Assembly: GCF_056712565.1 (NCBI RefSeq)
Contig: NZ_CM160072.1
Strand: one strand, 5' to 3'
Length of the DNA: 64,000 nt
A program made the position numbers. Below are positions 6,001-9,000 of the stretch, piece by piece; position 1 is the first letter of the stretch, and each line of letters starts with the position of its first letter.

Positions 6001-9000
6001 GCGCGGTATGGAACTGGATTTTCTTCTGAACCCGGTGGTGATGTACCAGGCTGTTGTTACAGATTTTTAACTCCATGAAAACACTATGCAAACGCAGCCA
6101 TACCCGGGGTGTCCCCTTGCGTTGTGTTCCTCAAGTTAATAGAATACATCGATCGTTACTATTATATTGATCGTTATAAACGATCGTTTGTAGTAAATGA
6201 CCTCCTCCGTGGTTGTCATGAAAATGCGTCTCAGGAAGGTTAAATAATGCACGAAAAGAACATCGCCCTGCTTTGTGATGAAGCCGACCGACTTTTGCAA
6301 CTGAACATTAATCTGCTCCGGCAAATGGTTGAGGAGCCAGATGTGTTATCTGACAGTAAGAACGAAAACAGACTGCTTTTTGATAAACAGAAAGCACTGA
6401 AAAGAATTGAGGAGCTGGAGGGCGAACAAATCAAAACCGCCCGCAGGGAGATGGTGCTGGCTGTTGTCGGCACGATGAAAGCAGGCAAATCAACCACCAT
6501 CAACGCCATTGTGGGGCAGGAAATTCTGCCTAACCGTAACCGCCCCATGACCTCTGTACCGACGCTCATCCGCCACGTTCCCGGAAAAACTGAGCCGGTT
6601 CTCCATCTGGAACATATTCAGCCTGTCCGCAATTTATTAATCACACTGCAGGAAAAACTCGCCACCCCGGCAGGACAGCAGGTCGCACAGACCCTGCAGC
6701 AAACCGGGGATACCCGCGAACTGCTGGATATTCTGACGGATGATGGCTGGCTCAAAAATGAATACCACGGGGAGGAGGAAATCTTTACCGGACTGGCATC
6801 GTTAAACGATCTGGTTCGTCTTGCTGCGGCAATGGAGACTGAATTTCCTTTTGATGAATACGCAGAAGTGCAGAAACTGCCGGTGATCGACGTGGAATTC
6901 AGCCATCTGGTGGGGATGGATGCATGCCAGGGAACACTCACACTGCTGGATACCCCCGGCCCTAATGAGGCCGGACAACCGCAGATGGAAGTGATGATGC
7001 GGGATCAACTGCAGAAAGCCTCTGCGGTTCTGGCTGTGATGGATTACACCCAGATGAACTCAAAAGCGGATGAAGACGTCCGTAAAGAGCTTAATGCCAT
7101 TGCTGACGTATCAGCCGGCCGCCTGTTTGTACTGGTCAATAAATTTGATGAGAAAGACCGCAATGGCGATGGGGCAGATGCCGTACGCCAGAAAGTTCCG
7201 GCAATGCTGAACAGCGATGTGCTGCCCGCCTCCCGCGTTTATCCCGGATCCTCACGCCAGGCATACCTGGCTAACCGTGCGCTTCATGAGTTACGGAAAA
7301 ACGGAACCCTTCCTGTTGATGAAGCCTGGGTCGATGATTTTGTCAGGGAAGCCTTCGGTCGCATGAAAAAAGATTACGTCTGTAAAGACAGCGAACTGGC
7401 AACTGAAGGGGCGACAGACCTGTGGGAATGCTCACTTATCGATCAACTGATAACGGAAGTCATACTGAGTTCACACTCCAGAGCTGCGGCACTGGCGGTT
7501 GATTCTGCCGCCGCAAAACTGATGCAGAATGCAGAAAATATCAGTGAATACCTGTCGTTACGCCATCAGGGGCTGATGCAAAGTATTCAGTCACTGCAGG
7601 CGCATATCACCAGCCTGCTTGAGGATATCCGGGAAATAGCAGACTGTCAGGAGCAGGTGACCGCTGATGTCAGAATGGCCATGGAGGAGATCGATGCCAG
7701 AACCCGGGAATTACTGACGGGGGTCTGCACCTCACTGGAAGAGGAGCTGAATGACTATTTCAGAAGCGGTAAACGCAAAGAACAGCAAATGCTGGAGGAA
7801 GAAAATTCAGCGCAGCCCCGGGAGAGAAACGCATTCGCTTTCTTTCACGATATTTTCGGAACCGGAAATCAGCATGACAGGATGCGGGACTTTGATCCCG
7901 ACAGCCCCGAAATAAAATTCAGTGATCGCAGGGAAGCCCTTGAACTGATGACGCAAATCGAATCGACCGTGACCAGCCTGCACCGTGAGGCTGAAGCACA
8001 GTTCCGGCCTGAGCTGGAGAAAATCGTCAGCGGGATTGAAACAGGTTTTCGTGGCACGGCCCTGTACGCCACAGAAAACATTGCCGGTCGCATCAATACC
8101 CGCCTGGAGGATGAGGGCTTTACCGTAAAAATCAGTTTTCCGGCAGTCAGTCAGTTACAAACCCGGCTCGCGGTAAAAACAAATCTGAGTGCGCTTATGG
8201 AGGAAAGAACGGAGACCGTCACCCGTCGCCGTCGGCAGAGTGGTTTATGGGGAAAGATTTGTGGAGCGTTTGGCACCAGTGACTGGGGCTGGGAAACCTA
8301 TAAAGAGGATGTGAGCCGCAGTGTTATCAATATCAACACCGTCAGGAAGGAAGTTATGTCACTGACCCGGGCATATTTCGGGGAGCTGCAGGCATCCATT
8401 GAGCAGGATATTAACCAGCCCGTCCGCCAGGAAATCGATGCCTTTTTCTGCGCATTCAGGGAGAAAGTTGAACAACTGCGTAACACGCTGATTCAGAGCT
8501 CTGAAGATCATAAACGCGATCAGCAGGCACAGGAACGGCTTACCAGGCGACTTCAGGCATTAAATGAAAGGGTTCCTGAGCTCATTACTGACAGTAAGGC
8601 GCTGAGGGAAGAGCTGGAGACAATGCTGTGACTTCACCATTTATTCAACAAATTGCTGATAACCGGGTATGTCAGGTACTCACCTGTCTTCCTGAAAAAT
8701 TTGTGGTTGATTTCGCAAACGGAATCGATGTTGCACAGGAGCATATCCGCACGGCCGGAGAGCGCACGTTCTTCCGGCGTTTAAAAGAGGGACTGACCGG
8801 CGAAGGCGCTGCACGGCAGAATGCCATCAATGCTTCGGTTGCACAGGGCCTTGAGGCGTCCCTGCGCTGGCTGACGGAGCTGACAACGTCACTTGCCACC
8901 ACAAACTACGCGATTACCCGGGTAAACGACAGGGTCAGTTCACTGGTCAGTGATACTGCCAGGCTGGCGCATTATTCCGCAGATACACGGGAGCAGTTAC

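Follow-up and report, generated by a model that had tools for sequence, protein, structure and literature searches.

The question raised by this locus is how expression of an island-borne operon for a dynamin-family GTPase, an RdcB-like protein and a patatin-like phospholipase is controlled, and in particular whether the epigenetic ON/OFF switch known from the Ag43/Cah autotransporter gene (agn43, also flu or cah) has been kept in front of a different cargo. The stretch of DNA analysed, here called the window, comprises 64,000 nucleotides of contig NZ_CM160072.1 (RefSeq assembly GCF_056712565.1) from Escherichia coli Nissle 1917, and its positions 6030-6246 are 100% identical to NZ_CP022686.1 718409-718625. 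A preliminary description had placed an agn43-type Dam/OxyR phase-variation switch ahead of the dynamin-patatin operon, a proposal that is supported here by homology, by conservation and by indirect expression evidence from E. coli strain MP1. With a probability of roughly 0.7, the agn43 (flu/cah) control region has a diverged but functional homologue at positions 6117-6203 that works by the same switch, and the gene cluster behind it would probably be expressed in only part of the population. The elements of the region are as follows.

6117-6122, plus strand: -35 hexamer TTGCGT, in the same place as TTGTCC of K-12 and TTGCGT of the cah type
6123-6139, plus strand: promoter spacer of 17 nt, read from the sequence
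6140-6145, plus strand: -10 hexamer TAGAAT, inside the conserved TAATAGAATA, kept in all three allele classes
6148-6184, unstranded: predicted OxyR tetramer operator of 37 bp, two half-sites with a 7-nt linker
6148-6162: OxyR half-site 1, ATCGATCGTTACTAT, read from the sequence
6170-6184: OxyR half-site 2, ATCGTTATAAACGAT, read from the sequence
6151-6154: GATC-I, Dam site, intact in 49 of 49 indel-free haplotypes
6169-6172: GATC-II, Dam site, 18 bp after GATC-I; AATC in one haplotype
6182-6185: GATC-III, Dam site, 13 bp after GATC-II as in agn43; TATC in one haplotype
about 6151, plus strand: predicted transcription start at the G of GATC-I, from homology with the K-12 agn43 leader
6203/6204, plus strand: junction between agn43-type promoter, operator and early leader (left) and native dynamin leader (right)
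6233-6239, plus strand: Shine-Dalgarno sequence AGGAAGG, 7 nt ahead of the dynamin ATG at 6247

Alignment of the region with the yeeP-flu interval of K-12 and the GTPase-cah interval of O157:H7, extended to a seven-way alignment, shows a common 3′ end and stop codon of the upstream GTPase gene. The stop is followed at the same place and in the same order by a series of conserved blocks, namely the -35 TTG, TAATAGAATA, CGATC (GATC-I), GATCGTT (GATC-II) and CGATCG (GATC-III), while the remaining intergenic sequence between the blocks is largely diverged. The promoter and operator constitute an allele class of their own relative to K-12 flu and cah, from which they differ in the spacer and at positions between the contacts. 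Its homology with the agn43 control region is almost certainly genuine.

The coordinates first assigned to the promoter (6117-6145), the two half-sites and the GATC sites at 6151, 6169 and 6182 are exact. Scored against ATAGnTnnnAnCTAT-N7-ATAGnTnnnAnCTAT, which has 20 specified positions, each half-site matches 8 of 10, as previously described, for a total of 16/20. This operator is the top OxyR-consensus match in the 64-kb window, with block shuffles giving a mean of 0.2 sites at ≥16/20. In the same register the proven K-12 agn43 operator scores 14/20 and the cah type at most 13/20; the window operator fits the OxyR consensus at least as well as that of K-12 agn43. The interval from GATC-I to GATC-II is 18 bp in the window versus 19 bp in K-12 flu and cah, and the shorter interval brings the first quarter-site into the consensus register, accounting for 16/20 versus 14/20, while the interval from GATC-II to GATC-III is 13 bp in all three. 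Three GATCs in 38 bp are not significant alone, as the window holds three such clusters and shuffles a mean of 1.2. What goes beyond chance is the coincidence of the cluster with the OxyR match, its placement just past the -10, the homology and the conservation. The preliminary description had also put every GATC of the operator in a CGATCGTT-like context; the three sites are indeed there, but GATC-II of Nissle sits in TGATCGTT, most other alleles having CGATCGTT at this site.

A good consensus match is equally what would be expected of plain redox control, with OxyR, primarily a peroxide sensor, acting as an ordinary oxidative-stress regulator and the GATCs incidental or serving for fine-tuning, so that no heritable bistability would arise. 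The site lies past the -10 and over the predicted start, however, which is the position of a repressor rather than the usual upstream position of an activator, and all three of its GATCs have been conserved among the contact positions, a property of the proven epigenetic switch as well. At agn43, moreover, reduced and oxidised OxyR both bind (PMC2909390). Redox control is considered very improbable, and an agn43-type switch remains the preferred reading of the operator.

For the promoter, the coordinates, the hexamers and the 17-bp spacing of the preliminary description hold, but its rating as a good sigma-70 promoter does not, since the -35 agrees with TTGACA at only three of six positions and a consensus scan makes no call. 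The same scan does call the homologous K-12 promoter TTGTCC-17-TAGAAT. An alternative AT-rich match of the generic scan at 6136-6165 is regarded as chance, and a few alleles (TUM18530, EC31) carry TAGAGT as the -10. The annotated 5′ end of IsrC, the leader RNA of K-12 agn43, lies 6 nt past TAGAAT at the G of GATC-I (K-12 locus L002, position 2318), with the Rfam match to RF00124 (IsrC) beginning at L002 2316, and because the homologous G is at about 6151 in the window, transcription is predicted to start near this position. The IsrC leader itself is taken to be absent from the window, as an Rfam scan of 5400-6700 returned no match. In K-12 this leader ends in a strong intrinsic terminator (L002 2479-2506) located 33 nt ahead of the flu ATG, so that Ag43 expression needs read-through; the fused dynamin switch is without this terminator. 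Folding of the leader RNA pairs CCUCCUCC (6201-6208) with the Shine-Dalgarno sequence at 6233-6239, with a z-score of only -1.5 that is not significant, and the UCCUCC element occurs in the Ag43-linked spacer as well.

The switch at agn43 is well characterized: on the unmethylated operator, OxyR acts as a repressor and shields the three GATCs from Dam, GATC methylation blocks OxyR binding, and competition between the two proteins after replication generates heritable states with about 1e-3 switches per generation, dam mutants being locked OFF and oxyR mutants locked ON (PMC13337833, PMC3764049, PMC4872104, PMC2909390). By analogy, the sigma-70 promoter TTGCGT-17-TAGAAT in the window would initiate at about 6151, with one OxyR tetramer site (6148-6184) containing three Dam sites directly past the -10. 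In the OFF state the three GATCs would be unmethylated and OxyR bound, blocking RNA polymerase and shielding the GATCs from Dam; in the ON state Dam would have methylated first after replication, excluding OxyR and allowing the operon to be transcribed. Both states would be inherited, with switching at low frequency. The transcript would comprise a leader of about 96 nt and five genes, for the dynamin-like GTPase, the RdcB-like protein, the patatin-like protein and two small hypothetical proteins, ending near 12010. In this scheme we infer OxyR binding and methylation-dependent bistability at the locus, and likewise the biological role of the cargo.

Conservation of the switch was assessed in 125 sequences, consisting of metagenome contigs (>120, from a scan with an invariant leader 31-mer) and genome loci. 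Three GATCs are present in 121 of the 125 and the 18/13 spacing in 120. Variable columns were counted in 6117-6190, a region unconstrained by the search pattern, across 49 distinct indel-free haplotypes, and the set of functional positions was fixed beforehand from the model in the preliminary description. The counts of variable positions are as follows.

-35 hexamer: 0 of 6
-10 hexamer: 1 of 6, a singleton
GATC positions: 2 of 12, both singletons
OxyR-specified positions: 3 of 20
promoter spacer: 7 of 17
operator N positions: 9 of 17

When pooled, predicted functional positions are variable in 5 of 36 cases (1 non-singleton) and the others in 20 of 38 (14 non-singleton), with Fisher p values of 5e-4 and 3e-4. 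This is the pattern expected if purifying selection acts on the two promoter hexamers, the Dam sites and the bases contacted by OxyR, and the positions in between drift freely. It also bears on the possibility that the operator is a relic left by deletion of Ag43, with an operon that is constitutive, silent or otherwise controlled and forms no epigenetic lineages. A relic would be expected to decay uniformly, whereas the 49 haplotypes vary away from the hexamers, the OxyR-specified bases and the GATCs, and the neighbouring positions vary freely. Among the rare operator variants are an 18-bp deletion that merges GATC-I and GATC-II with loss of half-site 1 (three sequences), a change of GATC-II to AATC (strain T309), a change of GATC-III to TATC and an insertion past GATC-III, while clone D i2 has a 1-bp deletion giving a GATC spacing of 17 bp. 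These variants are candidate locked or rate-altered alleles.

How the switch came to precede a dynamin operon can be approached from the junction. The preliminary description had suggested aligning the intergenic region with K-12 yeeP-flu to locate the recombination point, and this alignment, used together with the O157 comparison, places it at 6203/6204. On the left, the window up to about 6203 aligns with the early agn43/cah leader (GATCGTTTGTAGTAAATGACCT versus GATCGTTTATAGTGGTTAATGGCCT). On the right, the sequence differs at a single base from the terminal 43-44 nt of the O157:H7 cah-dynamin spacer, and in blastn searches O157 locus L006 5001-9483 corresponds to window 6203-10685 at 97.6% identity, collinear from 44 nt before the dynamin ATG. 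O157:H7 TR01, ERL06-2442 and clone D i14 carry the order GTPase-switch-Ag43/Cah-dynamin-RdcB-like-patatin, with a 110-bp spacer between Ag43/Cah and dynamin. Because its left flank aligns with the agn43/cah leader and its right flank with the O157 dynamin leader, the window looks like the outcome of an Ag43/Cah deletion that begins at about +53 of the agn43-type leader and stops 43 nt short of the dynamin ATG. The IsrC portion of the leader, with its strong intrinsic terminator, was lost in this deletion. Under the proposed scheme, the Ag43/Cah gene and most of its leader would thus have been lost from a GTPase-switch-Ag43-dynamin island. The earlier idea of a replaced Ag43 coding region with a kept control region is correct in that flu-yeeR is replaced relative to K-12 and the control region retained; the informative relative, however, is the Ag43/Cah-dynamin order, and the retained region is not the K-12 flu allele. 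A simple scan of the O157 cah-dynamin spacer found no promoter and no terminator, which weakly suggests that cah and dynamin may be co-transcribed in O157.

The distribution of these arrangements was counted among 5426 complete E. coli genomes. The first kilobase of the dynamin gene occurs in 2478 genomes, the fused 217-bp arrangement (6030-6246) in 1983 and the Ag43/Cah-to-dynamin junction in 635. A query with the operator alone (6085-6203, sensitive mode) found 1984 genomes, so that this operator allele class would be essentially confined to fusions with the dynamin leader, and a search of the same genomes for an Ag43 gene preceded by the fused-type operator allele found none. Carriers of the fusion include Nissle 1917, ATCC 25922, UTI89/NU14, O104:H4 and MP1. 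In E. albertii NBRC 107761 the fusion is likewise present with all three GATCs, next to a gene for a dynamin protein that is only 90% identical; a protein scan of one genome per species returned only E. albertii and one distant homologue, too few for a deep cross-genus footprint. The separate allele class and the occurrence in E. albertii indicate that the fusion is old, and it is common and successful rather than a private deletion of Nissle. That an old fusion keeps all of its elements again argues against a relic.

Related operators were seen in other settings. In clone D i14 (L007, about 3130-3180) the operator ahead of Ag43 has GATC-I changed to GATT, and this Ag43 allele may switch differently or be biased. 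In the IMG/VR sequence UViG_2534681766_000003 (L138, 640-1400), phage-like genes take the place of Ag43 after a GTPase 3′ end, a cah-type operator (769-816) and some 120 nt of leader; a prophage may have inserted into this agn43 leader, or the virus call may have been given a wrong boundary. In strain 673 (L015, 3400-6200) an IS66-family element lies between an agn43-type operator and an Ag43 pseudogene.

Expression evidence comes from an RNA sequencing (RNA-seq) study of E. coli MP1 with the Kapi1 prophage compared with the non-lysogen (PMC12922286; BMC Genomics 2026). Whichever of the two media was used, a cluster of five genes, SID94_19700-19720, stood out in the lysogen as "the most strongly up-regulated", and its up-regulation did not follow the lytic-lysogenic decision (PMC12922286). 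The authors state that the regulation of such dynamins is not described (PMC12922286). Mapped onto NZ_CP139039.1, these five genes encode the dynamin, the RdcB-like protein, the patatin and two hypothetical proteins; they are immediately preceded by the same 217-bp switch, with its three GATCs at 18/13, and by a GTPase gene that carries a frameshift. As the upstream GTPase gene is outside the up-regulated cluster, the differential transcript would begin in this intergenic region. A large, medium-independent difference between single-colony siblings fits a heritable ON/OFF state. It would also be explained by regulation in trans, in which the Kapi1 prophage or another regulator causes the difference and OxyR and Dam are not decisive. 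This corresponds to the published interpretation of the lysogen up-regulation as mobile-element crosstalk (PMC12922286). Yet the effect is independent both of lytic-lysogenic behaviour and of the medium, hyxRAB, which includes the known phase-variable regulator hyxR, also differed between the same two strains (PMC12922286), and single-colony bottlenecks are a documented source of artefacts for Ag43 (PMC3764049). Phase variation is never considered in the study, the text of which has no occurrence of "phase vari" (PMC12922286), and regulation in trans would leave the conservation pattern of the operator unexplained. Such regulation is judged quite unlikely, and a heritable switch state is the preferred account of the MP1 difference.

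Several points weigh against a functioning switch and have to be set beside this evidence. The -35 is weak and the promoter uncalled, and the interval between GATC-I and GATC-II is not the 19 bp of proven agn43 alleles. A literature search found no report of OxyR binding, unmethylated GATCs or bimodal expression for the locus, and methylome papers on ST131, O111 and SMALR make no mention of it. The haplotypes behind the conservation counts share ancestry and are not phylogenetically independent, and metagenome singletons may be assembly errors. The switch does not appear to be indispensable, since loss of a GATC or of a half-site occurs naturally in a few alleles. In the MP1 study the authors attribute the expression difference to the Kapi1 prophage, the RNA-seq comprises two replicates, and a second copy is affected by multi-mapping. 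The promoter, the spacing, the lost sites (including half-site 1) and the silence of the literature on function are also what a relic operator would predict. In addition to the uneven decay and the age of the fusion, however, a relic is at odds with an operator closer to the OxyR consensus than that of K-12 agn43 and with an MP1 sibling difference that is strong, medium-independent and starts exactly at this intergenic region. A relic is held to be unlikely, though less so than the two other alternatives, and the agn43-type switch is retained as the main interpretation.

The genes surrounding the switch, including its cargo, are the following.

160-5166, minus strand: ABC transporter and TonB-dependent receptor genes, upstream of the switch region
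5501-6029, plus strand: yeeP-like GTPase pseudogene remnant with an internal deletion (blastn, Pfam); leftover open reading frame (ORF) 5556-6029
6247-8631, plus strand: dynamin-family GTPase, paralogue of CrfC/YjdA/RdcA (Pfam Dynamin_N 2e-18; NCBIfam CrfC 5.5e-165)
8628-9533, plus strand: YjcZ/RdcB-family protein (Pfam YjcZ 2.2e-71; RefSeq name)
9530-10600, plus strand: patatin-like phospholipase (Pfam Patatin 3.8e-25; translation)
10736-11413 and 11429-11839, plus strand: two hypothetical genes (RefSeq annotation)
11981-12010, plus strand: strong terminator-like hairpin with a 13-bp stem and a following T-run

The yeeP-like GTPase is the gene found ahead of agn43/cah in other islands. In the window it matches the full-length O157 gene in two blastn blocks spanning 5501-6068 with about 430 bp missing between them, its 3′ end shares 92-95% identity with yeeP of K-12 and with the GTPase gene of O157, and Pfam gives only weak GTPase matches for the remnant, the remaining ORF of which is labelled a hypothetical protein in RefSeq. 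The dynamin protein has an intact P-loop, GTMKAGKST, in translation, and its match to NCBIfam PRK09866 (CrfC) covers residues 1-793 but scores 551 bits against an equivalog cut-off of 1146, which is why it is regarded as a paralogue and not an orthologue of CrfC. The start of the RdcB-like gene overlaps the dynamin stop by 4 nt, and the dynamin, RdcB-like and patatin genes form a translationally coupled trio on the plus strand. The patatin-like protein retains the GGGxxG, GxSxG and DGG motifs intact and has no evident signal peptide. Family searches (Pfam, PADLOC, NCBIfam) found no matches for the two hypothetical genes, the MP1 counterparts of which are both members of the co-regulated cluster SID94_19700-19720. 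The hairpin at 11981-12010 is the probable end of the transcription unit, and beyond it lie the usual CP4-44-type genes (DUF932, antirestriction, yeeS, yeeT, yeeU/V).

Other observations concern the flanks. A weaker terminator-like hairpin directly follows the patatin gene (10617-10636). O157:H7 is without the two hypothetical genes between patatin and DUF932 (window 10686-11904), which Nissle and MP1 have. The minus-strand TonB-dependent receptor gene (ATG at 5166) is immediately preceded by a segment, 5175-5230, with four GATC sites in 56 bp, a density that is not statistically unusual for the window; a Fur box considered for the same segment was rejected, the best candidate having 12 of 19 matches, a common level in the window.

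A literature search found nothing linking dynamin genes with OxyR, Dam or phase variation, and the fusion of the switch to a dynamin operon appears to be undescribed in the searchable literature and to add to the family of agn43-type switches. To our knowledge, Dam/OxyR switches are established for very few cargoes, namely Ag43/Cah, gtr and opvAB of Salmonella and mom of phage Mu. The present case would extend this list to an enzymatic cargo that is not at the cell surface and is widespread in E. coli (1983 of 5426 complete genomes), and it offers a testable account of a published puzzle, the appearance of this operon as the top "lysogen-induced" cluster of MP1. It also calls for caution, as single-colony bottlenecks can give spurious differential expression or phenotypes at the locus. 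Should the operon turn out to be a defence system, or a membrane system harmful to its own cell, phase variation could serve as bet-hedging against its cost. A wider and rather doubtful possibility is that a heritable Dam/OxyR ON/OFF switch controls, in more than a third of E. coli strains, a cytoplasmic, membrane-acting module of dynamin, RdcB-like partner and catalytically intact patatin, which might contribute to membrane repair, anti-phage defence or abortive infection, and that in 635 more genomes the module stands behind the Ag43 switch. If so, aggregation and membrane function would co-vary in the same subpopulation in those 635 genomes, the module would represent the first case of epigenetic bistability in a dynamin or defence-like system, and E. 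coli clones would differ in their transcriptomes and in phage-sensitivity assays for a reason so far hidden.

Among known systems, the closest relatives of the cargo are RdcA/RdcB of K-12 (YjdA/CrfC and YjcZ), a GTPase partner system (PMC6510439, PMC13463826). The first two genes of the operon encode full-length homologues of this pair. Unlike RdcA/RdcB, to which identity is about 30% (PMC12922286), the window genes are island-borne, are coupled to a patatin-like phospholipase and two hypothetical genes, and have no known link to DgcE. The Eleos system ("Dynamins", LeoA/LeoBC; Millman 2022) is similar in placing a dynamin-like GTPase in a mobile island beside defence genes, but the partner genes in the window are RdcB-like and patatin. 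Assignment to Eleos was rejected, as the PADLOC match to LeoBC (4e-6) is partial with no single significant stretch and there is no match to LeoA; PADLOC classes the operon as none of its known defence systems. A role in phage defence has been suggested for the operon (PMC12922286), and a defence or membrane role of the cargo is speculation.

Among the switches, gtr and opvAB of Salmonella likewise rely on competition between OxyR and Dam at GATCs in half-sites to form heritable lineages, as is proposed for the window, and they also drive horizontally acquired, envelope-related genes (PMC2909390, PMC4856963). In gtr, three half-sites combine into two alternative OxyR sites that precede the promoter, and the GATCs number four, grouped in two pairs; OxyR both activates and represses there, and a dam mutation does not lock the switch OFF (PMC2909390). 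In the window there are only two half-sites with three GATCs, and they follow the -10; a gtr/opvAB-type switch was rejected on this architecture. The earlier remark that gtr operons use the same logic holds for the OxyR/Dam competition and is otherwise only loosely right, the architecture being different (PMC2909390). The agn43 switch of K-12 is the nearest known system. In contrast to agn43, the cargo in the window is the dynamin/RdcB-like/patatin operon rather than an autotransporter, the leader is about 96 nt with the roughly 200-nt IsrC/RF00124 leader and its intrinsic terminator absent, and the operator belongs to a separate allele class with 18 bp instead of 19 bp between GATC-I and GATC-II and a better consensus fit. 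Like agn43, the window switch is placed directly after a yeeP-like GTPase gene, has the -35 TTG, a 17-nt spacer and TAATAGAATA, and carries a single predicted OxyR tetramer site right past the -10, with three GATCs in the site, 13 bp between GATC-II and GATC-III and CGATCGTT contexts around GATCs.

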